Part shown: one piece after another, positions 19,573 through 37,875 of the stretch
Position numbering within the stretch: the stretch's first letter is position 1
Layout: every line of letters starts with the position of its first letter
Position numbers and translations under genes: made by a program
Notes under the pieces: model-generated
Seen by the model: the letters and a program-made list of their open reading frames with translations, nothing else
Told to the model about the DNA's origin: nothing
The model's database searches: none
Assembly (NCBI GenBank): GCA_965209225.1
Contig: OZ242379.1
Coordinates: 1,421,289 to 1,485,288, forward strand
Length of the DNA: 64,000 bases
Source: Thermodesulfobacteriota bacterium
GTDB lineage: Bacteria > Desulfobacterota_D > UBA1144 > Nemesobacterales > Nemesobacteraceae
Direction of reading: 5' to 3'

Positions 19573-19648
19573 TCCGGCGTAGCTCAGTTGGCAGAGCAGA
19601 TGACTGTTAATCATCGGGTCGCAGGTTCGAGCCCTGCCGCCGGAGCCA
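19573..19648 (+). tRNA. tRNA-Asn (GTT)
   Basis: Cloverleaf with a 7-bp acceptor stem TCCGGCG/CGCCGGA, anticodon loop CTGTTAA, T-arm GCAGGTTCGAGCCCTGC and an encoded CCA. Confidence 0.9.
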
Positions 19649-19658
19649 AATTCCATCC

Positions 19659-20852
19659 CTAGAAACCTGCTTCATGCAGTTTATGCCAAGGCACGATATC
19701 CCCGTCCGTACGTTGCTGAAGTTGATTTCCTCCATAGGCTATGACTATATTGCACGGACGGGATAATTCGGTTAGATGTTTGCGGACGCGTCGTACCCGG
19801 CTGAACAGACCCGAAGACCCTGTCGCCGTGGACTTGGCGTCGACAAGCGTAATGCGGGACGGGTCCTCGATGATAATATCTACCTCGGCTCCATTGCGGT
19901 CGCGGTAAAATGAGAGACCTCCGGTCTTGCCACTGTTGCTTCGGTGCTTTGTTATCTCCGAGGCTACCCAGGTTTCGAAGATCGGGCCGCGAAGCGGATG
20001 AGAGTTTAACTGTTCGGGTGTCCGGATACCCAGGAGCCAGCAGACTAGCCCTGTGTCATAGAAATGCAGCTTCGGCATCTTTACGAGTCTCTTGCGCAGG
20101 TTCGAGTGAAAAGTCGGAAGGCGGAAAACGATAAAGCTCGTCTCAAGTATGTTAATCCAGGATTTCGCACTCGGCTGCGATATGCCGCAGTCATCAGCCA
20201 GTGAGGAATAGTTGAGCAACTGCGCCGTACGCCCGGCACACAGTTGGACAAACCGTTGGAATGTAGCTATATCAGCTACGTTGCTTACTGTTCGCACATC
20301 GCGTTCCACGTAAGTGGTGACATAAGAGCGAAACCAGTCGGACGGATCAAGATCAAGATCGAATATACGTGGGTATCCGCCGGCAAAAAGGGTCTCCTCA
20401 AGACTCGGGGGATGTCTGTCGAATCGCGTAATCTCGTTGCGCGCGAGAGGAAACAGGTTATATACTGCTGTCCTCCCGGCTAAAGACTGGCTGACCGATT
20501 TGAGTAGAGAAAAGTTCTGTGACCCCGTAAGTATCCAGCGCCCCGGCGCAGGATCTTCGTCGATTATGCCCTGCAGGTAGGAGAGAAGATCAGGCGCACG
20601 CTGCACCTCGTCGATTACGCAGCCTTTTGGAAATTGAGCCAGAAACCCTCTGGGATCCTCAGTTGCGAAAGCCCGTATGTCCGGAGCCTCAAGGCTTGCG
20701 TACGGATGGTGAGCGAACAAGGCCCTGCATAATGTTGTCTTACCGCTTTGCCGGGGTCCCGTAAGCGTGATGGAGGGAAACTTCCACGCTGCTTCGATAA
20801 GCTTTGGTGCTAGGTTGCGATTGATCATAACCAGTCGCAGTCTAACTGACAA
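19659..20852 (-). CDS. AAA+ ATPase (AAA_14/DUF4143 family)
   Basis: Walker A GPRQSGKTT and Walker B VIDEVQ. Its stop codon is 11 bp from the tRNA-Asn 3' end. The true start may be the internal MINRNL. Confidence 0.65.
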   Translation of the reverse strand: MSVRLRLVMINRNLAPKLIEAAWKFPSITLTGPRQSGKTTLCRALFAHHPYASLEAPDIRAFATEDPRGFLAQFPKGCVIDEVQRAPDLLSYLQGIIDEDPAPGRWILTGSQNFSLLKSVSQSLAGRTAVYNLFPLARNEITRFDRHPPSLEETLFAGGYPRIFDLDLDPSDWFRSYVTTYVERDVRTVSNVADIATFQRFVQLCAGRTAQLLNYSSLADDCGISQPSAKSWINILETSFIVFRLPTFHSNLRKRLVKMPKLHFYDTGLVCWLLGIRTPEQLNSHPLRGPIFETWVASEITKHRSNSGKTGGLSFYRDRNGAEVDIIIEDPSRITLVDAKSTATGSSGLFSRVRRVRKHLTELSRPCNIVIAYGGNQLQQRTDGDIVPWHKLHEAGF

Positions 20853-25895: not shown

Positions 25896-26273
25896 CTATT
25901 TCAACCAGTCTTTCTTCTCGGTCGAACTGCTTATTACCTCCGCCTCAAGCTCGTCAATTTCCGCCTGAATCGCTTTCTGAACTGCCCTGAGCTGCTGGCG
26001 GTACTTGCGGAACCTTCTTCTGTTCTCCGTCATGCTTTTAACCCACTGCACTTCTCCCTTCGCAACAGCTCTGGACTTTGAACTGGAACCCTGGAAAAAA
26101 ACTATACGATCCAACGGATGACCATCCCCCCTCGCACACCAGCAGTTGGGCTTCCCGCACTTGCGATAAACAGTGCTGAACGAACCCCTGATCATCCCTC
26201 TGATTCCGACAATGGAGTTCAGCAGTTCAGCGTGTCTTAGTCCCAGCTGTTCAATCTGTTTTATTCTTGACAT
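25896..26273 (-). CDS. Small zinc-ribbon (CGKPNCWC) hypothetical protein, divergent from the IS1634 transposase
   Basis: 125-aa basic protein with a CxxC pair. Its position suggests it is an IS accessory gene. Confidence 0.35.
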   Translation of the reverse strand: MSRIKQIEQLGLRHAELLNSIVGIRGMIRGSFSTVYRKCGKPNCWCARGDGHPLDRIVFFQGSSSKSRAVAKGEVQWVKSMTENRRRFRKYRQQLRAVQKAIQAEIDELEAEVISSSTEKKDWLK

Positions 26274-26306: not shown

Positions 26307-27986
26307 ATGTCAACCACTCTCAAACGAACGCGTATCGGTGAAATCCCCCTGCTTCAGCATGTGGTTCGACGACTCGGGCTAGACCGCCTGCTGCGCTCTT
26401 ACATTCCGCCCCACGGCAATGAAACCTATCCAGCGGCCGACACTCTTTTGCTTCTGGTGTTCAACATCGCAAGCGGTCGCTGGCCCCTGTATGATCTCCG
26501 ACGCTGGACCACGGACATTGACGGTCGGTTACTGGGACGTAAAAGCGCTTTGCCCGAGGAGGTGTTTAACGATGATCGTTACGCAAGGGCTCTTGACAAG
26601 CTCTTTTCTGTTGACAGGGCCTCTTTTCTTACAGACTGCACGCTTGGAGTGGTTCGCTCAACGGGTCTTGAACTCTCACAGCTTCACAATGATTCCACCA
26701 CGGTTAAAACAACGGGGAAGATGCCGCAGAGAACCCGAAGTGGTCTTTCCTTTGAATACGGACACAGCAAGGACCATCGTCCTGATCTCAGGCAGATAGT
26801 GTTCTCCCTCACGATTTCCGCGGACGGGGCAGTGCCTGTTCACTGCAAGACCTGGCCCGGCAACCGCACGGACGACACCACTCACATTGAGACCTGGACA
26901 GTCCTGCGCGACATGGCGGGGAGAAGTGATTTTCTGTATGTGGCTGACTGCAAGCTGTGCACGGAGAAGCAGCTTTCATTCATAGTGGGCAACGGGGGCA
27001 GGTGCGTGACGATAATTCCGAAGACACGGGGAGAGGTGAAGAAGTTCAAAGAATCCATGAGGGAGAATCCCAGGGGCAAGGAACGTATTATGCGCAGGCC
27101 TGTGTCTGGTCGGGATGGGAGTTTCGAGACTTTCTACAGGATCAGGGGAAGTTATGAGACAGACAAGGGTGGTTACGGGGTTCACTGGATATATTCAACG
27201 GAGAAGAGAAGACAGGACAGCGAACAGAGGGAGCGGCGGATGGATGAGGCTTCCCTGGCTCTTGCTGACATAAGCGGTCGGTTAAACAAGCGCAGGCTCA
27301 AGACGAAAGAGCAGATTCAGGAAAGGGTAGAGAAGATACTGAAGAAACATGATGTCAAGGCTTTTTACGACGTTACGATAGAGCAGTACGAAGAGGTTAC
27401 GCGGAAGCAGAGAGGAAGAGGACGTCCTGGGAGGGGGACAGCGTACAGGGAGGAATCAAAGACGGTGTATTCGCTTAGCTGGAGGAGGGACAGGGAAGCT
27501 CTTGAGAGGGAGAAGAATGTTGACGGCTTGTTTCCGTTGCTGTGTACGGACAGAGAGATGGGGGCGAAGGAGGCTCTTTTGGCGTACAAGTATCAGCCGA
27601 GGCTTGAGAAGAGGTTTGAGCAGTTAAAGAGCGTGCATCTTGCGGCTCCCACATTGTTCAAGAAGACAAGCAGGGTGGAGGCCGTGATGTTTCTGTTTTT
27701 CATGGCTTTGATAATACAGGCGGTAATAGAGAGGGAGGTGCGCAACTCCATGAAGGCCAGGGAGATAGACGCCATAGCGGTTTATCCTGAGCATCGTCTT
27801 GCGTATCATCCTACGACTGCGAAGATAATTGAACGGTTCCATGACACGAGCGTGTATCGTGTTATGCGAGGGGATGAGGTTGAGACGGAGTACCGCGACG
27901 ATCTCTCAGCTGTTCAGAAGGAAGTGCTTGAGCTGCTGGGGATGACGGAACAGGACTACTGGGACAGTCTTGTTCCTCAGCAGTAG
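26307..27986 (+). CDS. IS1634-family DDE transposase
   Basis: 559 aa with a DUF4277-like N-terminus and the HSKDHRPDL motif characteristic of IS1634/IS1549. Confidence 0.75.
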   Translation: MSTTLKRTRIGEIPLLQHVVRRLGLDRLLRSYIPPHGNETYPAADTLLLLVFNIASGRWPLYDLRRWTTDIDGRLLGRKSALPEEVFNDDRYARALDKLFSVDRASFLTDCTLGVVRSTGLELSQLHNDSTTVKTTGKMPQRTRSGLSFEYGHSKDHRPDLRQIVFSLTISADGAVPVHCKTWPGNRTDDTTHIETWTVLRDMAGRSDFLYVADCKLCTEKQLSFIVGNGGRCVTIIPKTRGEVKKFKESMRENPRGKERIMRRPVSGRDGSFETFYRIRGSYETDKGGYGVHWIYSTEKRRQDSEQRERRMDEASLALADISGRLNKRRLKTKEQIQERVEKILKKHDVKAFYDVTIEQYEEVTRKQRGRGRPGRGTAYREESKTVYSLSWRRDREALEREKNVDGLFPLLCTDREMGAKEALLAYKYQPRLEKRFEQLKSVHLAAPTLFKKTSRVEAVMFLFFMALIIQAVIEREVRNSMKAREIDAIAVYPEHRLAYHPTTAKIIERFHDTSVYRVMRGDEVETEYRDDLSAVQKEVLELLGMTEQDYWDSLVPQQ

Positions 27987-28187
27987 GAATGATGATTCCG
28001 GAATGCGGAAATTCGGAAAAACAAGGAATTTTTTTCCGCGGAAAATAGGATCTAAGTTATTTCATTAGGGGATTTTGTTGTATACTAGTCAAGGCTGGAA
28101 AAACGGAATAAATGTTTCCTTTGACCAAAATGAAGAGGTGTGGCGTTCCTTACATGTCCAAGAACTCTTGTTCTGGTCGGATTTATT

Positions 28188-29471
28188 ATGAGCAGGCGTC
28201 ATGAGACAGGACTTCATCGCAAGAATGAATATCCTATAGTCTATCTGGACTATGCTGCCACAACTCCTGCTGACCAATCCGTCATTGATATCATAATCCA
28301 ACATCTGGGATTTGAAGGTGTCTTTGGCAATCCTTCTTCGCAATCTCATCAATTCGGAAGAATGGCAGAAGAAGCAGTGGAAATAGCAAGATCTCACTTA
28401 GCTAAGTTGATCAACGCAGACCCTGTAGAGATTGTTTGGACATCTGGAGCAACAGAATCCATTAATTTAGCCATAAAAGGGGTGGTTTACGGACGTTCTG
28501 GCCGAGGTGCCCATATTGTAACTTCAAGCCTTGAGCACAAAGCGGTTCTTGATTCTTGTGCTTATTTGGCCAGTAAAAGGTTCGAAATCACCTATGTCGC
28601 CCCGGATCAGCATGGGATAATTTCACCAGAAAAAGTCGGTGAAGCACTTAGAGATGATACCGTCCTTGTATCCCTTATGCATGTGAACAACGAGGTAGGT
28701 ACCATCACGGATATTGACGCAATAGGTCAAATTACAAGGGATAGAGGGGTCCCATTCCATGTAGACGCAGCACAAAGTTCTGCGCGATTACCCATTGATG
28801 TAAGCGAGATACCAGTGGATTTTATTTCGCTTAGCGGTCATAAGATGTACGGTCCCAAGGGTGTCGGAGCACTATATATCAGAAAGCGATCAGGTATAAG
28901 CATAGAACCTCAAACGCACGGCGGTGGGCAGGAGTCTGGCATACGTCCAGGAACTCTCCCCACACACCAATTGGTCGGCATGGGAGAAGCGGCTCGATTG
29001 GCAAAACAACGTCTATACCAAGATGCAAAAACTATTGCTGCCCTTGATAGATATTTGTTGGATAGCTTAGCGGATATTGAGTCGGCTATATTGAACGGCA
29101 ATCAGACACACAGGGTGCCTGGGATTTTCAACATAAGCTTCGCTCATGTCGAAAACGAATCTCTTATGATGTCTCTTAAAGATGTTGCAATCTCATCCGG
29201 GTCGGCTTGTACTTCATCTCGTGTTGAGCCCTCCCATGTCTTGCTAGGGCTGGGAGTGTCAGAAGATGCTGCAAATTGCTCGATTCGCTTCAGTATTGGC
29301 AGACAAACCACTAGGGATGAAATTGATTTTGCCGCAATGCGTGTGAAGAAATCCGTTGAGTTGCTGCGTGAATTATCGCCTGAATGGCGGTCTCCTAATT
29401 CCGAGGAGCAACTTCAGAACGACAATAAAGCTAGGTCGAACATTACTGTAACACAGGAAAATGCCGTATGA
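28188..29471 (+). CDS. Cysteine desulfurase (class V aminotransferase; IscS/NifS/DndA/SspA-like)
   Basis: YLDYAATTP start, a PLP-lysine SGHKMYGPKG and an SGSACTS active-site Cys loop. The stop overlaps the next gene's start (ATGA). Confidence 0.8.
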   Translation: MSRRHETGLHRKNEYPIVYLDYAATTPADQSVIDIIIQHLGFEGVFGNPSSQSHQFGRMAEEAVEIARSHLAKLINADPVEIVWTSGATESINLAIKGVVYGRSGRGAHIVTSSLEHKAVLDSCAYLASKRFEITYVAPDQHGIISPEKVGEALRDDTVLVSLMHVNNEVGTITDIDAIGQITRDRGVPFHVDAAQSSARLPIDVSEIPVDFISLSGHKMYGPKGVGALYIRKRSGISIEPQTHGGGQESGIRPGTLPTHQLVGMGEAARLAKQRLYQDAKTIAALDRYLLDSLADIESAILNGNQTHRVPGIFNISFAHVENESLMMSLKDVAISSGSACTSSRVEPSHVLLGLGVSEDAANCSIRFSIGRQTTRDEIDFAAMRVKKSVELLRELSPEWRSPNSEEQLQNDNKARSNITVTQENAV

Positions 29472-30673
29472 ATAAGGAGACTGTACTAGCAAAAGTTGTC
29501 TCATTTGACAGTGATGAAAACATTGTCCGAGCAGTTAAATGCTTCAATACCGCCATTGATGTTATACGGAAAGAATATATGCGCAGGCATAATGACCCGT
29601 GGGTTGTGGCATATTCTGGCGGAAAAGACTCAACACTGTTACTGCAAATGACTTGGGAAGTGCTGGCATCACTACCAAGTTCAGCAAGGCACCGTAAAGT
29701 CTATGTAGTTGGTAACGACACTCTTGTGGAGTCGCCCTTAGTCATTCGCCATATGCGAAGCTCAATGAAAAAAATTGCCGAAGCAGCAACAGCTAGTAAT
29801 TTGCCGATAGAAACAGAGATTACTACACCTAACGTTGATCAGACATTCTGGGTCAATGTTATTGGACGTGGTTACATTCCGCCCACGCGCAACTTCCGCT
29901 GGTGTACCGACCGCATGAAAATCATTCCCACAAATCGGTTGCTGGAAAGGTTAACTCGCTCTCACAAGCGTGCCGTGTTATTGGTAGGAACGCGAAAGAG
30001 CGAGTCCACAAATCGTCGGCGCAACATGAAGAAACACGGAGCTTCGGGAACAACCATGAACCGCCACAGCAGCATACCTGCATGTCGTATGTTTTCCCCA
30101 ATCGCTGAATTTAAAGACGAGGATGTATGGATCACTCTGATACAACGAAAACCTCCTTGGGGAGGTACGCATCGGGACTTGATTACGCTTTATCGCAATG
30201 CTGGGGGAGGGGAATGTCCTCTGGTGCTGACAAAGGAAGATGCTCCTTCCTGCGGGACAACATCTCCAAGATTCGGCTGCTGGACATGCACTGTTGTAAA
30301 CAAAGACCGCAGCCTTCGGGGATTGATTGATTCAGGCCATGATGACACTGATTTTTTTGAGGCTCTTTACGACTTTCGCGAATGGCTCGTGGAAATGCGC
30401 GAGAACAACTCGAACCGGCAGAGTGTTAGGCGAAATGGAATATCCAAGACGCGTGCTGACGGAACTGTTGTACTGGGACCGTTCACCCTTGACGTACGTA
30501 AGTTGATTCTCGACCGGTTAAAGGAGCTTGAGCAAAGTATCGGGGAGCATCTAATCACAGAATCTGAGCTTGATATAATCCATGATATCTGGCGCAGGGA
30601 CCGAGTGGTCCAGTCATGTCGAGACGAGTTGCACGAAGCGGTTTCTTCCCATATGGAGGAGGAACTTGCATGA
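29468..30673 (+). CDS. PAPS-reductase-family PP-loop ATP pyrophosphatase, DndC/SspD-like
   Basis: SGGKDS PP-loop, an FRWCTDRMKI motif, and a C-terminal Cys cluster (CPLV...SCG...FGCWTCT) consistent with an Fe-S site. Confidence 0.7.
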   Translation: MNKETVLAKVVSFDSDENIVRAVKCFNTAIDVIRKEYMRRHNDPWVVAYSGGKDSTLLLQMTWEVLASLPSSARHRKVYVVGNDTLVESPLVIRHMRSSMKKIAEAATASNLPIETEITTPNVDQTFWVNVIGRGYIPPTRNFRWCTDRMKIIPTNRLLERLTRSHKRAVLLVGTRKSESTNRRRNMKKHGASGTTMNRHSSIPACRMFSPIAEFKDEDVWITLIQRKPPWGGTHRDLITLYRNAGGGECPLVLTKEDAPSCGTTSPRFGCWTCTVVNKDRSLRGLIDSGHDDTDFFEALYDFREWLVEMRENNSNRQSVRRNGISKTRADGTVVLGPFTLDVRKLILDRLKELEQSIGEHLITESELDIIHDIWRRDRVVQSCRDELHEAVSSHMEEELA

Positions 30674-32451
30674 CTACTCGGAAAGCATTGATTAAAGCGG
30701 ACTCTCTGCTGTTTTCAAACCTGCTCAGGGAAGGCAAGTTCTCGGTTCCATGGCATCAGCGTTATTACGACTGGAACCCAGGGCACGTTCAGGAACTCCT
30801 TTTTGATATTGAAGAAGCTCTAAAGGAAAAACGGGACTGTTATTTTCTGGGAACCGTGATTTTTGTGGAGAAAGAACCTGAACACTGGGAGATCAACGAC
30901 GGACAGCAGCGCATGATAACGTTTTCACTGATCTGTGCGTCGCTTTGCCGCAGGTTTGCGCACGAGACATCGGATTCTCAGCGCGAAGGAAGGGCGTTAC
31001 GCATTCTATTTGACTTGGATGAAAACACTCCATGTTCACTGGCCGCCGCTCGAAACTATACTCCTCGAATTTCCCCGCAGGAAGATGATGCAGTCTGGTA
31101 CCGGCAGATGATTCAGGGAAACGATATTGGAACTAACGGCACTATCACGGCCGCATGGAAAATTCTCGATGAATTTATCCTGTCGCAAAGCACTGAAGAA
31201 TCCGAGAAATATTTTGATTTCCTCGTCCGAAAGCTTGAAATAGCTCGTCTGCGGGTGCCAACGCAAGTTGACCCAAACGCCGTGTACGAGACTATCAACT
31301 GCAGGGGTAAAATACTTGATGACCTAGATCTAATCCGAAACCACATCTACTCGCATTTTAATAGTGAAGAAAATCATGAAAGAAAAAAGTCAGTGCATGC
31401 GCATCTGGAAAGAATTCGCACTAGGTTGTCTGCCAGGAGAACCTCTGAATATATGCGGTGTCACCTGCAATGTGTGTTTGGATTTCTTCGCAGGGACAGC
31501 TTCTATCGCGATGTACGTAAAGCAATCCGCAATCAAGCACAAGGGAAAAAAAGAAGCCAGGAAGACTATGTGCTTGAACTCGCGGAAAAAGTTGCCGACC
31601 CTAAAAGTCTGTGCCTCTTCTCAGAAGTGATAGTTTCATCCAATCCCGACCCTAAAACCATTCAGGCGTTTAATACTGACTCCGGAAAGGGAAATTTGCG
31701 CAGGAATCTTTCCGTCTTCCTGTGGGAACTGCGCGGATACACGGTAACTCAGCCATTAGTGTTCGCTTTGTTGACGGTTTATTTGCGCGAAACGGACGGT
31801 CGGCGAAGAAAACGGATTGCCAAAAAAGTGCATGAAAATTTGAGTCGGTTGGCAGCATTTGTTCTCAGAACTGCTTTTGTCGCCCCGAAGTTCGAGCCTT
31901 CTCATTTCGAAGCTAGATTCTCCGAGTTTGCGAAAAAAATAATGCAGGACGAGAAAATTCCCGATAAAGAATTTGCTGAGTTTCTGCTGGACTGCGACCG
32001 CGATTACTACAAAGTACTGGATGATTCTAAGTTTGAGGAAGAACTTTATGAAGCACAGATGACGGGTGACAAAAAGATAAAACGATTTCTTTTCGGCATT
32101 AACAGCGATCAGCAGACAGGTTCTCAGGTTTTTAATGACAGTGAATTTTCAGTAGAACACATACTTCCAAAATCAGATAGGCATTGGGACAACTGGAAAG
32201 GTTTCGGGGAAGAGGACCCGAAGGAATGGGTCAGCAGAATCGGAAACCTGACGCTTCTGGGAAGAACCGACAACAAACCGGGGACAAAGTTCAACGGAAG
32301 CTTTAAAAAGAAGAAAGAAATCTATGCGGAAAGTGCTCTGGTAATCACCAGCCAACTGTCTCAGTGGAACGACTGGACTCCTCAAAATATTAAAAAAAGG
32401 CAACGGTACATGGCTAGCCGTGCCGTTGAGGTCTGGAGGTTTATACGATAA
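30670..32451 (+). CDS. DUF262 (DGQQR, ParB/Srx-like NTPase) + DUF1524 (His-Me finger) protein, SspE/GmrSD-like
   Basis: The N-terminus carries a DGQQR motif. The C-terminus carries an EHILPKS...N...N HNH-like motif. The start overlaps the upstream stop (ATGA). Confidence 0.7.
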   Translation: MTTRKALIKADSLLFSNLLREGKFSVPWHQRYYDWNPGHVQELLFDIEEALKEKRDCYFLGTVIFVEKEPEHWEINDGQQRMITFSLICASLCRRFAHETSDSQREGRALRILFDLDENTPCSLAAARNYTPRISPQEDDAVWYRQMIQGNDIGTNGTITAAWKILDEFILSQSTEESEKYFDFLVRKLEIARLRVPTQVDPNAVYETINCRGKILDDLDLIRNHIYSHFNSEENHERKKSVHAHLERIRTRLSARRTSEYMRCHLQCVFGFLRRDSFYRDVRKAIRNQAQGKKRSQEDYVLELAEKVADPKSLCLFSEVIVSSNPDPKTIQAFNTDSGKGNLRRNLSVFLWELRGYTVTQPLVFALLTVYLRETDGRRRKRIAKKVHENLSRLAAFVLRTAFVAPKFEPSHFEARFSEFAKKIMQDEKIPDKEFAEFLLDCDRDYYKVLDDSKFEEELYEAQMTGDKKIKRFLFGINSDQQTGSQVFNDSEFSVEHILPKSDRHWDNWKGFGEEDPKEWVSRIGNLTLLGRTDNKPGTKFNGSFKKKKEIYAESALVITSQLSQWNDWTPQNIKKRQRYMASRAVEVWRFIR

Positions 32452-32468
32452 CGGTTGACAGTTTCCAG

Positions 32469-33851
32469 TTGCGCCGCCTTGCGGAGGAAAAGCTTCGTGT
32501 TCCCGCACTTTTGCACGATTACCAGTGGGAGGGAGTGGCTTTCTTATATCAGTCGCCTTCGGGACTTCTTGCAGATGAAATGGGGCTCGGAAAAACGGTG
32601 CAGACTGCAGTCGCCTTGGGACTGCTTATGCACGCGCAAAACGATGTCAATCGCACAATAATAGTGGCACCCGCTTCCCTGACAACCAACTGGATAGAAG
32701 AACTGGAAAAATGGGCACCGTCGCTTACGGTACGGAGAGTGCAAGGCGACGCACGAAACAGGGAAGCTTTTTACCTGCTTCCGATTCCTGTTATCGTGGC
32801 CTCCTACGAGCAGATCCGCCTTGACGGGTTGGATAGAATTCCCTCAAACGCTTTCGACCTCGTCATACTTGATGAAGCTCAGCGGATTAAGAACAAGGCA
32901 TCTACCACTTCCTTGGCGTGCAGACTTCTCCCAAGAAAGCGCGCATGGGCCTTGTCCGCCACGCCCCTTGAGAACGACGAGGCCGATATTGAATCAATAC
33001 TCGGGTTCCTCGACCCATCATTCGGACAATCTCCTCCTAGATTGGTCTTGAACAAGAAGTTGAGATCAATGATGCTGCGTAGAAAGAAATCCGACGTTCG
33101 AGGGGAACTCCCTCCGGTAATCATACAAGATATTAAAATCGACTTATCATTACAGCAAAGAAACAAATATGAAGATATCTGGTTTAGCAGGACCAATGCT
33201 ATCGGTGACGGCACATCTTCCGGAAATGTTGTCTCTGTATTACTCGGACTTATTACCCGCCTGAAAACTGTGTGCAATTTTGACGAATCAACAGATACCT
33301 CGTCAAAGTGGGATGTTCTCCGGGATCTACTCGATCAGGCCGGGAATTCAGCCCGCATTCTGGTGTTCTCGCAGTTCGTCGAAACCTTGCGCTGGATTTC
33401 CAAACGCCTGGAAATTCCACACAGTCTCCTGACGGGTTCAATGCCCTTGACTCGGAGGCAGAAATCCATAAACGAATTCAAAAGAAATCCGGCTCCTCGC
33501 GTACTGCTGGTTTCGCTTCGTGCGGGCGGAGTGGGATTGAATCTCGGAGAGGCTACCCATGTAGTTCTTTTTGACAGATGGTGGAATCCCGCTGTGGAAG
33601 TTCAGGCGATCTTCCGGGCTCATCGTTTTGAACGCAATGATCCGTTGCATGTTATCAGATTCCTGGCCACCGACACCATTGAGGACCGGATAGCGGAAAT
33701 ACTTGATCGGAAAGAGGACTTGTTTGATGAAGTAATAGAGTCCGTTGAAACCAAGTCTCGCAGTTTTTCACTGCAGGAAATGATGCGCATACTTGAACTC
33801 ACAGAAAATGATCTCTTTTCGGCTAGGGAAGGAAAAAGAACAAAATCGTAA
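32469..33851 (+). CDS. Minimal SNF2-family DNA-dependent ATPase
   Basis: GLGKT Walker A, DEAQ box, LSATPLEN, and a helicase-C domain with RAGGVGLNL and FDRWWNP. There are no accessory domains. Confidence 0.75.
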   Translation: MRRLAEEKLRVPALLHDYQWEGVAFLYQSPSGLLADEMGLGKTVQTAVALGLLMHAQNDVNRTIIVAPASLTTNWIEELEKWAPSLTVRRVQGDARNREAFYLLPIPVIVASYEQIRLDGLDRIPSNAFDLVILDEAQRIKNKASTTSLACRLLPRKRAWALSATPLENDEADIESILGFLDPSFGQSPPRLVLNKKLRSMMLRRKKSDVRGELPPVIIQDIKIDLSLQQRNKYEDIWFSRTNAIGDGTSSGNVVSVLLGLITRLKTVCNFDESTDTSSKWDVLRDLLDQAGNSARILVFSQFVETLRWISKRLEIPHSLLTGSMPLTRRQKSINEFKRNPAPRVLLVSLRAGGVGLNLGEATHVVLFDRWWNPAVEVQAIFRAHRFERNDPLHVIRFLATDTIEDRIAEILDRKEDLFDEVIESVETKSRSFSLQEMMRILELTENDLFSAREGKRTKS

Positions 33852-33962
33852 GGCATTTTCGGAGAGTTCAACATTTGGGATCGGGTCTAGAAAGTGGCTT
33901 TTTTCTCGTAAATCTGCTAACTTATCCAACTAGCTTAAATCGCTTAAAAAAGGGGGTATAAA

Positions 33963-34790
33963 ATGCCAAAAATAATTGAATATAGAGAACTGCCTCTAGA
34001 TGATCTCGTGATAGGAAAGGGACAGGTTCGAACGTTTGAACCAGGGAAGGACATTGAAGAGCTAGCTAACAGTATCAGGGTGCAGGGGCTGTTGCAACCG
34101 ATAGTTGTGTGCGAATCGAAAGAACGACCCGAAAAATGGGAAATCCTTACGGGGCAGAGGCGTTATCTAGCACACAAGCACCTTAAAGAGCAAAGCATAA
34201 CGGCTGCGATCCTAGATGGACATGTTGATGAGCGTACGGCCAAGGCGATTTCTATTACCGAAAACCTGATTCGCCGCAAGCTTTCAGGCTCAGAACTTAT
34301 TGACGGAGTAACGTACTTGTACAACATGTACGGAACGCAAAAAGCTGTTGTTGAAGCTACAGGTCTTCCTGCGTCGGCCGTTCGGGACTACGTGAAATAC
34401 CCTCGGCTTATAGATCCCCTGAAGAAACTTGTTGATGATGGCACCGTTGATATTCATGGAGCTTTAAAAGCTCAGGACGCATCCATTAATGAAGATGGAA
34501 AACCGGACCCGGAAACCGCGGTAAAATTGGCTAAGGAAATGGTTCCCATGTCCGGCATTCAGCGCAAAAAGGTTGTTCAAGCGCGCAAAAAGGATCCCGA
34601 AAAACCAATTGATGACGTGATTGAGGATGCGAAAGGAGCATCCAAGGCAACTCAGGTTGTCGCGACGATTACGCAGAAAACACACACTGCTCTGCAGAAA
34701 TTCGCTAATAACGAAGGAATAAACCAAGATGAAGCCGCTGCTACGCTCATAGAACGTGCTTTGACCAGCGAAGGGCTTCTGGACGAATAA
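33963..34790 (+). CDS. ParB/Srx-domain nuclease-like protein
   Basis: ParB N-domain with a GQRRYLA box and a following HTH-like region. Confidence 0.65.
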   Translation: MPKIIEYRELPLDDLVIGKGQVRTFEPGKDIEELANSIRVQGLLQPIVVCESKERPEKWEILTGQRRYLAHKHLKEQSITAAILDGHVDERTAKAISITENLIRRKLSGSELIDGVTYLYNMYGTQKAVVEATGLPASAVRDYVKYPRLIDPLKKLVDDGTVDIHGALKAQDASINEDGKPDPETAVKLAKEMVPMSGIQRKKVVQARKKDPEKPIDDVIEDAKGASKATQVVATITQKTHTALQKFANNEGINQDEAAATLIERALTSEGLLDE

Positions 34791-35513
34791 ATGCTAGCTG
34801 ATCTCAGTGCTCTCGAGCTCGGGCGTCTCCGAATGTCGGTAGGATACGGTACTCATAAAAAAGGGCGGCCGCTCTCACCAGTTGAAGTCGGAAAATTGAT
34901 TCGCCAAGCTAAAGAAGCGGGCATTTCAACGGAGGATTGCGCCAAAGCAATTAATCTTGACAAAACAAGTATCGGTCGCTTCCTGCGAATTCTTGATCTG
35001 CCTGAAGACGTTCAGCATCTGGTTTCTTGGGGTGCCCAGAAGGATTCTATTGGCTTTTCGGTGGCCGCCCAGTTGGCAAGGTTTGAAGATACAGAAGATC
35101 AGCATGCTGTTATTGAGACAATTTTAACTGATGGGCTTAGCAGGAAAGAAATTGAGCAGGTCTTACAACTCAAGAGTCGATCCGGCAGGAAAATTGACGA
35201 GTGCTTGAAAGAAGTTCTGGGAATGCGTCCTGTGATTGAGAAAAGGCATGTATTCATCGGGATGATAGATGACCAGGATTTGGATGTGACGCTTTCGGGT
35301 CTGACACAAGCACAAAGGGACTCAATACTGCAATCCAGCATCCAAGCACTTGGCTTAGCTGAGGTGTCTGGCCGACTTGGAAAAAACATCCTCACTTTGG
35401 TCGGTTCTCATAGCCTCGGGACATATATCAAAAACATTGGGGCAGACAACCTTGAGGCACAGCTTATAGCCCAGATTCAAAAAGGTATCAACAATGAACG
35501 ACTCCGCGATTGA
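34791..35513 (+). CDS. ParB-like HTH-domain protein lacking the N-terminal catalytic box
   Basis: A ParB HTH-like region (LSPVEVGKLIRQAKEAGISTEDCAKAINLDKTSIGRFLRI) is present. The gene starts 1 nt after the upstream stop. Confidence 0.5.
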   Translation: MLADLSALELGRLRMSVGYGTHKKGRPLSPVEVGKLIRQAKEAGISTEDCAKAINLDKTSIGRFLRILDLPEDVQHLVSWGAQKDSIGFSVAAQLARFEDTEDQHAVIETILTDGLSRKEIEQVLQLKSRSGRKIDECLKEVLGMRPVIEKRHVFIGMIDDQDLDVTLSGLTQAQRDSILQSSIQALGLAEVSGRLGKNILTLVGSHSLGTYIKNIGADNLEAQLIAQIQKGINNERLRD

Positions 35514-36528
35514 TGTTTTCGAGAGCGGGGCTGTCCGTCTGGGCACAAATGTGGTTTGTGACGGTTTCGTGGAAGGATATGACTTCCGTGTCCAGACACA
35601 TGTTCACGATGATCACATGGGGGACTTTGATACAAGTAAAGGCAGACAGGATTTCTTCATGAGCGTGGAGACGTTTAGTCTTCTCAACGCTTTTCTCAAT
35701 GCAGAAATCCCCTACCGATCTAACTTTCACAAAATTCTGCGCGGGGCTGAGTACGAACTTCGTGATGGTTCAAAGCTGACTCTTCTTCCGTCGAACCATA
35801 TGCTCGGTTCATGTCAAGTATCCTTGCAGTTGCTAAATGGCCGACGAGTAGGTTATTCGGGGGATTTCGGCTGGCCTCTCGAAAAAATCATCCAGGTCGA
35901 TGAACTCGTGGTGGATAGCACCTACGGAAGTCCGAATAGCGTACGCGGCTATACACAAGCTGAGGCCGAGGAATGTCTTTTGGAGCTTGTATGCAAACGT
36001 TTGAGGTATGGTTCCGTTCATATCTACGCCCACCGAGGAACAGTTGAACGGGTTCTGCATATCATCGAAGGTAACGTGGGAGTCCCAATTCTTGCCAGTG
36101 ATCGACTTATTCAAGAAGTAGATGTTTATCAGAATTGCGGAATCGCACTGGGAGAAGTTGAGAGCCTTAGTTCAGATGAAGGAGTATCAGCATCCAAACG
36201 AAGGGCTTACGTTCGATTATATTCAAAAGGCGACGGTTTCGGAAACGAACCCATTACTGACACAAGTATCAAATGCAGTGCCTATATGGCCACACGTTTT
36301 GCGAGTAGTCCGTTAATAACCCTCAGTGACAACTCTTACAGCGTGGCATTATCAAATCATGCGGATTTTCGCGAGACGCTTGAATATGTTGAGGCAACGG
36401 GAGCTGAGATAGTAGTCACCGATAATACACGTAACCATGGCATTGAACTGGCCAACGCAATTAACGAGCGTTTATCCGGGATCAAGGCAAGACCATCAAC
36501 AAATAATCCCACACCTCGCTGGCGCTAA
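35494..36528 (+). CDS. Metallo-beta-lactamase-fold hydrolase (probable nuclease)
   Basis: HVHDDH (HxHxDH) motif, downstream His/Asp ligands (NHML, SNHADF) and a beta-CASP-like C-terminal half. Confidence 0.65.
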   Translation: MNDSAIDVFESGAVRLGTNVVCDGFVEGYDFRVQTHVHDDHMGDFDTSKGRQDFFMSVETFSLLNAFLNAEIPYRSNFHKILRGAEYELRDGSKLTLLPSNHMLGSCQVSLQLLNGRRVGYSGDFGWPLEKIIQVDELVVDSTYGSPNSVRGYTQAEAEECLLELVCKRLRYGSVHIYAHRGTVERVLHIIEGNVGVPILASDRLIQEVDVYQNCGIALGEVESLSSDEGVSASKRRAYVRLYSKGDGFGNEPITDTSIKCSAYMATRFASSPLITLSDNSYSVALSNHADFRETLEYVEATGAEIVVTDNTRNHGIELANAINERLSGIKARPSTNNPTPRWR

Positions 36529-36692
36529 CCGAAATTCATCCAATTAATCTAAGGTTAGACGCGCTCGCTCGGGTCTGTGGGGGAAAGGGAGCGGAAACGC
36601 CCCTTTCTACCCAGTCATAAATATTGTATGCGATATTTGACATATATGTAGCGACAATAATATGCTATAGTATCATCTTTGGGAAGTAATTA

Positions 36693-36944
36693 ATGGCTAC
36701 ACGCAAAATACCAGCCCCGGACGGCGGACTTGTTGAGGCGGAAGTTGTTGACATTAAAGACATTAATAGTCGCCCTATCATTATAGAACTCTCCGACGGA
36801 GCGATATTAAGTATGAGAGTAGATATAGTTGAAGTTTGCCGTACTGATAAATTTCCGGATCAAGACGGCAATCCATTTTATAGTATAAGAAGCGGCAATC
36901 TTCTTTCAGTCGTTGAACCTCCGCAGGGGCAAGGAAAAAAATAG
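36693..36944 (+). CDS. Hypothetical small protein
   Basis: 83-aa ORF in an AT-rich segment behind a promoter-like TTGACA...TATAGT region. Confidence 0.35.
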   Translation: MATRKIPAPDGGLVEAEVVDIKDINSRPIIIELSDGAILSMRVDIVEVCRTDKFPDQDGNPFYSIRSGNLLSVVEPPQGQGKK

Positions 36945-36959
36945 AGATCGGTTAGCTAT

Positions 36960-37475
36960 ATGGAAAGCACTAAAACAGTACAAGTAATAGATACGTTTCA
37001 GAACAAGTCTTTTCCACTTTCTTTTTTACAAGAGAAGGTGGTGGGTAGCATTGACTTAGAAAGAAACTACATTTCACTTGACAGCTTGACGAGGAATTAC
37101 ACTGTACTTAAAGAACCTTCCTATTATGAGCCTCCCCGGAACACTTTTCCCGAAGAATATATTGAGTCTTCGTTTACTTTGCTTATGGAAAGCTGGTGCG
37201 AAGAAAAGAAATATATGTCTTTTCTGTCAGATATAGTTACGTGTCCTTCGTATCAAAAAATAATTGAGATGGGAGAATTAGCCCTTTCATTAATATTAGT
37301 TCAACTTAGAAAAGAAGGAGACGACCCAAACCACTGGTTTACCGCTCTTGAAGCTATAACAGGTCATAACCCAGTTCCAGAAAGCGCTTATGGAAATATG
37401 GTAAAGATGGCAGAAACATGGCTTTTCTGGGCCGAAAAAAATAATGTTTCCCGGCTTTCCGAATCTCAATTCTGA
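36960..37475 (+). CDS. Hypothetical protein (possible immunity/partner protein)
   Basis: 171 aa; overlaps the downstream ORF by 32 nt. Confidence 0.35.
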   Translation: MESTKTVQVIDTFQNKSFPLSFLQEKVVGSIDLERNYISLDSLTRNYTVLKEPSYYEPPRNTFPEEYIESSFTLLMESWCEEKKYMSFLSDIVTCPSYQKIIEMGELALSLILVQLRKEGDDPNHWFTALEAITGHNPVPESAYGNMVKMAETWLFWAEKNNVSRLSESQF

Positions 37476-37875
37476 AAATTGTCGCATAACTAGTCCACCA
37501 ACTAATCGCTACAACTGTATAGCTTGGGCGGCTGGTTGTAGTACCAAGTGGTGGTGCCCTTATGGCTATTGGCCTTCCGGAGTTCCCAGAAAAATAACTC
37601 TGTCTGCACTTTCAGAAGTATTTAGAACTCTTGGATACGAAGAATGCGAAGATGGTTTCTTAGAATCTGGATATGAAAAAGTGGCATTGTTCGCTAGTTC
37701 TAATGCTGATAAAGACCTGTTACCTACACACGCTGCAAGACAACTAAGGAATGGGTGGTGGACAAGCAAATTCGGAGATGATATTGAGCATAGGAATCCA
37801 GAAGACCTGAATGGTTCAGCATATGGAACTGTAATTTGTTTTATGCGACGTGCAAAAGAAGGTGGCTTGAAATAA
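37444..37875 (+). CDS. Hypothetical protein with a papain-like Cys...His arrangement (YNCIAWAAG ... PTHAARQ)
   Basis: 143 aa. The Cys/His spacing is reminiscent of NlpC/CHAP-type or other thiol hydrolases. Speculative. Confidence 0.3.
   Translation: MFPGFPNLNSENCRITSPPTNRYNCIAWAAGCSTKWWCPYGYWPSGVPRKITLSALSEVFRTLGYEECEDGFLESGYEKVALFASSNADKDLLPTHAARQLRNGWWTSKFGDDIEHRNPEDLNGSAYGTVICFMRRAKEGGLK

Follow-up and report, generated by a model that had tools for sequence, protein, structure and literature searches.

Whether DNA phosphorothioation (PT) can be written by a cysteine desulfurase and DndC alone, and what sort of restriction arm such a writer might carry, are questions raised by a seven-gene cassette in a stretch of Thermodesulfobacteriota DNA (assembly GCA_965209225.1, contig OZ242379.1, positions 1,421,289 to 1,485,288), the whole 64 kb of which is called the window below. 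Seven intact open reading frames (ORFs), all on the plus strand, lie at 28188-36528 of the window, and every plus-strand gene listed there by an original prediction made from the letters alone is present. They encode a cysteine desulfurase (g1), a short DndC (g2), a DndI-like protein (g3), an SNF2-family ATPase (g4), a ParB-type protein (g5), a second DNA-binding protein with a helix-turn-helix (HTH) motif (g6) and a beta-CASP nuclease (g7); the domain calls of the prediction were borne out for all seven by profile searches with Pfam, PADLOC and NCBIfam (Table 1). Genes g1-g3 are treated here as module M1 (DndA-DndC-DndI-like) and g4-g7 as module M2 (SNF2-ParB-HTH-beta-CASP), and related loci carry L-numbers.

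The cassette proved to be a real, conserved and mobile feature, and it is a variant within the Dnd phosphorothioation family rather than a categorically new system. The identities of its genes, their intact motifs, their conservation, their modularity and the linkage of M2 to DndC are established here. The reading preferred below, to which we would give an even chance, is that of a mobile Dnd-family PT modification and restriction system built of two modules.

Extent and organisation of the cassette

The limits of the cassette come from a related locus in a Dadabacteria metagenome-assembled genome (MAG), L007, which aligns with the window by blastn in a single 8.46-kb block of 83.7% identity, exactly from 28112 to 36557, and shares neither flank. 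As the alignment stops at these two positions, they are taken to be the limits of the mobile unit. Its GC content is 47.0% and that of the flanks 49-53%. The genes had been described as translationally coupled, which holds for four of the six junctions: g1/g2 and g2/g3 overlap by ATGA (29468-29471 and 30670-30673, the latter with the Shine-Dalgarno sequence GGAGGAGG upstream), g5 and g6 abut, a TAA being followed directly by an ATG, and g6 and g7 overlap by 20 nt. It does not hold for g3/g4, where there is a gap of 17 nt and TTG 32469 is the only possible start of g4, nor for g4/g5, where the gap is 111 nt. A scan for promoters and terminators gave no enrichment above shuffled sequences, and no tRNA-derived att repeat of at least 13 nt was found.

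Recurrence and horizontal spread

Relatives of g2 were sought in one genome per GTDB species and were found in 121 genomes, the best 80 of which were examined as DndC-anchored loci. These 80 are all MAGs and represent more than 12 phyla, with DndC proteins 60-88% identical to g2; Rhodothermales, Dadabacteria, Latescibacterota, Binatia, several Acidobacteriota orders, Chloroflexota and Gamma- and Alphaproteobacteria are among them, together with Nitrospirota, Nitrospinota, Thermodesulfobacteriota and Gemmatimonadota. Searches by tblastn with the seven proteins found the complete set, in unchanged order, in ~45 of the 80 loci, set in unrelated flanks, and the tight operon spacing is kept across related loci. 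The expectation that the seven genes would be conserved as a unit, for which this was the neighbourhood check, was therefore upheld, and such recurrence is far beyond chance.

Among the MAGs are found the names Poriferihabitaceae and Porisulfidus, both of which also occur in sponge genome notes, and the bin prefixes APA, CAR, COS, RHO, PNG and Plut. Since these names and prefixes point to holobiont projects, nearly all of the host MAGs apparently come from sponge or coral holobionts, an origin read from names and not from metadata. So close a similarity of DndC across so many phyla, in MAGs apparently from sponges and corals, would represent striking horizontal transfer across a habitat. The PT genes of a sponge metagenome have been reported as enriched, 'though not functionally complete' (PMC5099237), and the cassette may account for that remark.

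The desulfurase and DndC

By its profile matches g1 is a class-V cysteine desulfurase. Its PADLOC scores are 511 bits for SspA and 505 bits for DndA, and in NCBIfam it remains under the cut-off both for IscS (533 bits, cut-off 548) and for DndA (TIGR03235, 400 bits, cut-off 480), the equivalog level of DndA or IscS not being reached. The placing of g2 in the DndC clade, as predicted, was confirmed by a score above the cut-off of the DndC profile TIGR03183 (349.1 bits, cut-off 290.4) and by 50% identity over 349 residues, end to end, to the DndC of Mesorhizobium pM0123d. In PADLOC it scores 385 bits for DndC, 51 for BrxP and 24 for SspD. The PP-loop SGGKDS is found at residue 50, and six cysteines (146, 206, 250, 262, 271 and 274) are all invariant in the family alignment and all common to the Mesorhizobium protein. 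The family of g2 is a large, highly conserved DndC group of ~400 amino acids (aa). In the PDB g2 gave nothing usable, and its family profile found nothing below E 0.1.

The Mesorhizobium DndC, only 355 aa long, belongs to a canonical dndA-dndC-dndD-dndE cluster (L084, Mesorhizobium amorphae pM0123d 740382-759416), after which come a small protein and a CxC ATPase, then an FtsK-domain protein and an AAA ATPase. A short DndC was therefore rejected as a mark of systems without DndD and DndE. Viral contigs gave only two distant DndC matches, one of them at a contig end. About 1900 conjugative enterobacterial plasmids in PLSDB carry ~800-aa 'PAPS reductase family' proteins ~25% identical to g2 (e.g. 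L085, NZ_MZ152092.1 52238-54622), whose neighbours are hypothetical or encode a DNA methyltransferase and an HNH protein; their context is a different one, and they are unrelated to the cassette.

The original prediction held that DndD, DndE, DndB, SspB and SspC were absent, and this was confirmed, by tblastn for the Dnd proteins and by PADLOC for those of Ssp. Queries for DndD (three), DndE (three) and DndB (one) had no homologous match in any part of the 64 kb (best E 0.018, a generic P-loop match), the DndE family PF08870 has no match among the seven cassette proteins, and PADLOC gave no SspB or SspC match for the cassette or neighbouring proteins. The predicted lack of Dpd and BREX hallmark genes was also borne out, no cassette protein matching DpdA, DpdB, BrxC, PglZ or BrxL in PADLOC.

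The DndI-like protein

The third gene had been likened to SspE or GmrSD. Its DUF262+DUF1524 architecture is as foreseen, but its closest relative is DndI: the nearest solved structure is PDB 9JFL (DndI, 596 aa, E 5.8e-11), which is matched in both domains, while in PADLOC the HEC-06 (241 bits) and 'Orf5' (171 bits) models match g3 along its full length and SspE (54 bits) only short stretches of it. All of 71 orthologues have the motifs DGQQR77, EH497xxP and G525N unchanged. The PT-sensing tyrosine of DndI (Y25; Y30 in SspE) aligns with His29 of g3, which follows an invariant Trp28 (W28-H29-Q-R, DNA 30751-30756) and is histidine in 68 and tyrosine in 3 of the 71 orthologues. DndI of Salmonella Cerro 87 is a DUF262+DUF1524 ATPase-nickase that acts with IscS-DndBCDE against phages; when self DNA carries PT, the ATPase is stimulated and the protein is released from that DNA (PMC11662687). 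Of the seven proteins g3 is the most divergent (mean identity 46%, against 67% for DndC). It is found in ~70 of the 80 DndC-anchored loci, the rare loci without it carrying a different HNH protein or a module that contains DndE, and it occupies the slot between dndC and SNF2 that dndD-dndE fill in a sister architecture described below.

The SNF2-ParB-nuclease module

The motor protein g4 aligns with the C-terminal motor halves of the PADLOC proteins DpdE and ZorD (212 bits), corresponding to positions 700-1167 of 1176 in the DpdE profile, and has the motifs GLGKT, DEAQ and QAxxRxHR. In g5 the ParB boxes LLQPI43, GQRR64 and ENLIRR100 are invariant or almost so among 34 orthologues. A C-terminal RHH domain is not claimed for this protein, RHH_6 being found in only 3 of the 34. 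The fold of g6 is that of a KorB/ParB DNA-binding domain. Protein g7 matches TIGR04122, a ligase-associated exonuclease family, over its full length (57 bits) and has the motif HVHDDH at residue 36. Its structural model (pLDDT 88.4) found archaeal CPSF, Artemis, SNM1A and Apollo by Foldseek against the PDB (E ~1e-15 to 1e-17), with a TM score against SNM1A of ~0.7 in both directions; as modelled, g7 has a beta-CASP DNA/RNA nuclease fold. Its subfamily is rare, a search of 1.84 billion representatives giving 146 clusters at E<=1e-30, and g7 has no match in PLSDB plasmids or GenBank phages. PADLOC 2.0 has no model for g5, g6 or g7.

Several phage-like contigs (L148-L152, e.g. L152 752-5111) have a terminase followed by a ParB-HTH-beta-CASP triad ~30-35% identical to g5-g7. 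SNF2 and DndC are absent from these, and a ParB-DNA-methylase fusion lies nearby. Such phage triads may be the source of the core of M2.

Two modules and their exchange

The division into two modules is seen in the Spearman correlations of pairwise identities, which are 0.59-0.68 within g1-g3, 0.62-0.76 within g4-g7 and 0.26-0.52 across the blocks. The window and L007 form a mosaic, with 75, 84 and 68% identity for g1, g2 and g3 and 95-97% for g4-g6, which points to recent recombination with a breakpoint close to where g3 meets g4. In L076 g4-g7 are inverted and precede g1-g3. Roughly one in four DndC-anchored loci is without g4-g7 and has, directly after g3, a small GIY-YIG protein together with one of the DndB family (PF14072, 96-107 bits); the seven-gene loci and those without M2 are interleaved on the DndC tree, from which it follows that M2 has been exchanged repeatedly. 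Rarer partners are a small protein, a CxC ABC ATPase and a DndE::FtsK fusion (L014, L083), a g6-like HTH protein with an HNH protein and an AAA_21 ATPase (L063), and a SAM methyltransferase-HNH fusion with a g6-like protein (L054).

A second scan, of JGI metagenomes and anchored on g7, found M2 at 42-65% identity with a PP-loop gene adjoining wherever flanks were available. The commonest order was dndC (499-542 aa)-dndD-dndE-SNF2-ParB-HTH-MBL (MBL being the metallo-beta-lactamase gene), often followed by dndA (L091-L105, L109, L139). The DndE proteins of L093 and L102 score 86-94 bits for PF08870, and the DndD of these sister loci matches canonical DndD by phmmer at E 1e-29 to 1e-35. Permuted orders of M2 and dnd genes are found in L107, L112, L116, L130 and L137, and in L120 a 268-aa PAPS-reductase gene stands directly 5' of SNF2. 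In the closest of these loci, L091-L097 and L139, g4 and g7 are 63-65% and 62-65% identical to those of the window, a similarity like that among sponge-type copies, whereas their DndC is 40-43% identical to g2 and thus farther from it than is the canonical DndC of Mesorhizobium. Such similar M2 genes beside such divergent DndC proteins indicate that M2 moves between different writers. As M2 also follows dndC-dndD-dndE in these loci, the idea that it replaces DndD and DndE was rejected. M2 is a Dnd-linked accessory module and probably an effector arm, like DndFGH or PbeABCD in its logic. The original prediction had read the sulfur genes and the helicase, ParB and nuclease genes as one system; they do co-occur, but the helicase, ParB, ParB and nuclease block is separable and elsewhere follows a canonical dndC-dndD-dndE.

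Methyltransferase genes lie between or beside DndC and the ParB-HTH or M2 genes in a few related loci. Class-I SAM enzymes are found in L054 (11204-12970, fused to HNH) and L141 (5323-6816), and an N6/N4 DNA methylase stands beside DndC and M2 genes in L112 (5642-6991). These hint at mixed sulfur and methyl marking.

Relationship to known systems

Measured against what defines the known systems, the cassette has the DndC and linked desulfurase of Dnd and lacks DndD and DndE, and the defining features of Ssp, BREX-4, Dpd and ParABS are not found. The Dnd system of Salmonella Cerro 87 (IscS/DndA-DndBCDE, DndFGH and DndI) resembles it in having a desulfurase and DndC writer with a DndI-like nickase alongside and a second arm of translocase and nuclease, so that one writer serves two effector branches. 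The cassette differs in having no DndD, DndE or DndB, in the histidine in place of the PT-sensing tyrosine, in its short DndC (401 aa) and in a second arm of SNF2, ParB, KorB-like HTH and beta-CASP proteins rather than DndF, DndG and DndH. With SspABCD-SspE it has in common a desulfurase that scores as SspA, a sulfurtransferase of the PAPS-reductase fold and a DUF262/DUF1524 NTPase-nickase after the writer genes. However, g2 is of the DndC and not the SspD type, there is no SspB (DUF4007) nickase or SspC ATPase, and the 54 bits of g3 for SspE compare with 171-241 for the Orf5 and HEC-06 models.

The TdpABC system of extreme thermophiles (An et al. 2025, Nat Chem Biol, as cited in PMC12914056 and PMC13251355) is reported to make PT with a single PP-loop enzyme and without partners of the DndD/E type, TdpA and TdpB forming its restriction part. 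The cassette resembles it in that its writer apparently has neither an ATPase nor a DNA-binding partner, and TdpC is the only known precedent for so stripped-down a writer. Swappable helicase and nuclease modules on a PT writer are also known from DndCDEA-PbeABCD and the CxC-ABC-ATPase modules (PMC10853773); M2 differs from these in that ABC ATPase, HKD nuclease and FtsK/HerA domains are all absent from it. Dpd, which makes 7-deazaguanine, likewise combines its modification enzyme with a ParB-like protein and an SNF2-type helicase, and the motor half of DpdE is the best PADLOC match of g4; the cassette has no TGT (DpdA) or queuosine-pathway gene, and its modification enzymes are sulfur enzymes. 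It is unlike BREX type 4 in the low BrxP score of g2 and the lack of BrxC, PglZ and BrxL matches, and unlike ParABS in that the cassette has no ParA-like ORF and the partners are an SNF2 protein and a nuclease. The IbrA/IbrB pair, to which the original prediction had drawn a parallel, is probably only a loose resemblance, g2 having just the PAPS_reduct domain in Pfam and scoring as a DndC equivalog, and g5 being a generic ParB_N protein.

No published description of this gene set was found in the literature consulted. The reappraisal of Dnd systems by the Aravind laboratory (PMC10853773) is anchored on DndD/E, and its main text contains no MBL/beta-CASP nuclease, no SNF2/ParB module and no ParB protein besides DndB. 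A 2026 paper (PMC12914056) mentions in passing, as uncharacterised candidates, small groups of dndC neighbourhoods that contain a P-loop NTPase and, in one group, DUF262 as well. The suggestion of an undescribed sulfur system thus survives as to the gene set and the lack of PADLOC models, but not as to the kind of system, which is a modular Dnd-family variant. The candidate new elements, judged from sequence, are a writer without DndD/E and a Dnd-linked module of SNF2, ParB, KorB-like and beta-CASP proteins. A conserved and widely transferred cassette that keeps only DndA and DndC offers a natural test of a minimal PT writer, and also of whether modification can involve a protein of the GmrSD type. 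With M2 as a candidate restriction arm of Dnd, prokaryotic immunity would gain clamps of the ParB-CTPase type and nucleases like SNM1.

A proposed mechanism and its alternatives

The chemistry, the rule for telling self from non-self and the division of labour in the two-module modification and restriction system are what we infer. From family membership, g1 would draw sulfur from cysteine as a persulfide, and g2 would use ATP to activate the backbone phosphate and install the sulfur at a short host motif, doing so without the DndD ATPase and DndE. By analogy with DndI and SspE, g3 would be an NTPase-HNH nickase that cuts incoming DNA lacking the mark, and PT on self DNA would release it or keep it off; being coupled to DndC and standing in the DndD-DndE slot, it may also help to recruit DndC to DNA. 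In the effector arm, the ParB-type protein g5, as an NTP-gated clamp, and the KorB-like g6 would bind DNA, the SNF2 motor g4 would translocate and the SNM1/Artemis-like g7 would resect from nicks or ends. As PT linkages are generally nuclease-resistant, they could, speculatively, act as stop signs for the g7 exonuclease and so spare self DNA.

Several points weigh against this. The hosts are all uncultured MAGs, in which PT is a prediction from sequence. Recent surveys and reviews describe PT synthesis in Dnd, Ssp and BREX-4 as requiring an ATPase with a DNA-binding or nicking partner, namely DndD/DndE, SspB/SspC or BrxC (PMC10853773, PMC12914056), and a writer of DndA and DndC only would therefore be unusual. 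In the alignment the position of the PT-sensing tyrosine of DndI and SspE is a histidine in g3. M1 also occurs without M2, in loci that have no obvious motor and place no constraint on the role of M2, and the label of restriction arm for M2 comes from the domains it contains and from the parallel with DndFGH and PbeABCD.

The main alternative, possible though rather unlikely, is non-orthologous displacement, in which g3 is a part of the writer that replaces DndD-DndE and M2 (or GIY-YIG with DndB) is the sole restriction or regulatory arm. The position of g3 in the exact dndD-dndE slot, its ATGA coupling to dndC, its presence in most DndC-anchored loci and its co-variation with g1 and g2 would all fit, as would the other HNH protein or DndE-containing module of loci without it and the lack of conservation of the PT-sensing tyrosine. 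Its high divergence is as expected of a specificity subunit but equally of an effector in an arms race, and the characterised DndI and SspE act as restriction effectors and are dispensable for modification (PMC11662687, PMC12707154). An elaboration that we regard as a little less probable again joins such a minimal writer, with g3 displacing DndD and DndE, to an unrecognised effector in which a ParB CTP-type clamp and the KorB-like protein guide the SNF2 motor and an SNM1-like exonuclease; self DNA would be spared because backbone sulfur blocks resection, and not via a dedicated reader. That M1 forms a PT system complete in itself, with M2 as an unrelated helicase/ParB/nuclease defence in the same island, is improbable. 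The modules are indeed separable and repeatedly swapped, co-vary weakly across their boundary and are inverted relative to each other in L076, but essentially every g7-anchored locus with enough flank has a DndC/PAPS-reductase gene beside M2, in several orders and with different DndC lineages. Tight operon spacing is conserved, relatives of g7 are rare and absent from the plasmid and phage collections, and the only DndC-free relatives are the distant (~30%) phage ParB-HTH-MBL triads, which have no SNF2.

The two remaining alternatives concern the mark itself and the role of M2. It is quite improbable that the sulfur goes not to the DNA backbone but to a DNA base or RNA, giving a different mark; for the option of base modification in the original prediction no support was found. 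The canonical DNA-handling proteins DndD and DndE are absent, PP-loop enzymes thiolate varied substrates, and class-I SAM methyltransferases lie beside DndC in L054 and L141; yet g2 scores above the DndC equivalog cut-off, has 50% identity and six cysteines in common with the DndC of a canonical cluster, and all of its partner proteins are of DNA-binding or DNA-cutting types. It is more improbable still that M2 serves maintenance or regulation, as a ParB partition or silencing module or in DndB-like control of PT, rather than as a nuclease effector. For this it can be said that g5 has complete ParB CTPase-type boxes, that g6 is KorB-like and that loci without M2 fill its slot with a protein of the DndB family, DndB being a negative regulator. 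The ParB pair has no ParA partner, however, and is accompanied by a conserved SNF2 motor and a beta-CASP nuclease with intact HxHxDH, and the cassette is chromosomal with no replicon of its own.

Genomic neighbourhood

The cassette lies within a low-GC island with tRNA-Asn on one side and glyA on the other (Table 1). Neither E. coli genomes nor PLSDB plasmids gave a megablast match to it. The UvrA-like paralogue of the same island is on the opposite strand and is not kept with the cassette in related loci, and the small ORFs downstream (83-aa, 171-aa and DUF7689) are never conserved with it there.

Table 1. Features of the cassette and its surroundings, in positions of the window
Feature	Position	Strand	Basis or remark
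tRNA-Asn	19573-19648		Near side of cassette island
DUF4143/AAA_14 ATPase	19659-20852	-	PADLOC single-gene candidate PDC-S01 (356 bits); adjoins tRNA-Asn
UvrA-like paralogue, 928 aa	21326-24112	-	UvrA DNA-binding and interaction domains; PADLOC mad3 285 bits, mad8 140 bits
DUF6788 gene	25896-26273	-	
IS-type transposase, DUF4277 N-terminus	26307-27986	+	Directly 5' of cassette
Whole mobile seven-gene cassette	28112-36557	+	Limits from homology to Dadabacteria MAG locus L007
g1, DndA/IscS-type PLP cysteine desulfurase (predicted sulfur donor)	28188-29471	+	Pfam Aminotran_5 276 bits
g2, DndC short form, 401 aa, PP-loop ATP pyrophosphatase/sulfurtransferase with Fe-S cysteines	29468-30673	+	TIGR03183
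g3, DndI/SspE-class GmrSD protein (predicted DUF262 NTPase and DUF1524 HNH nickase), 593 aa	30670-32451	+	GmrSD_N 74 bits, GmrSD_C 86 bits
g4, minimal SNF2-family ATPase/translocase (predicted), 460 aa, TTG start	32469-33851	+	SNF2-rel_dom 159 bits, Helicase_C 76 bits
g5, ParB-type N-terminal (CTPase-fold) protein with HTH region	33963-34790	+	ParB_N 55 bits; TIGR00180 72 bits, residues 7-159
g6, KorB/ParB-type HTH DNA-binding protein without NTPase domain, with C-terminal alpha/beta domain	34791-35513	+	HTH_ParB only
g7, beta-CASP metallo-beta-lactamase nuclease (predicted), SNM1/Artemis size	35494-36528	+	Lactamase_B_2 27 bits
83-aa ORF	36693-36944		3' of cassette
171-aa protein without family match	36960-37475	+	Overlaps next gene; 41% GC stretch
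DUF7689 protein	37444-37875	+	124 bits; pairs with overlapping 171-aa gene; 41% GC stretch
glyA/nrdR/tatD/pdxA	from 38047		Far side of cassette island

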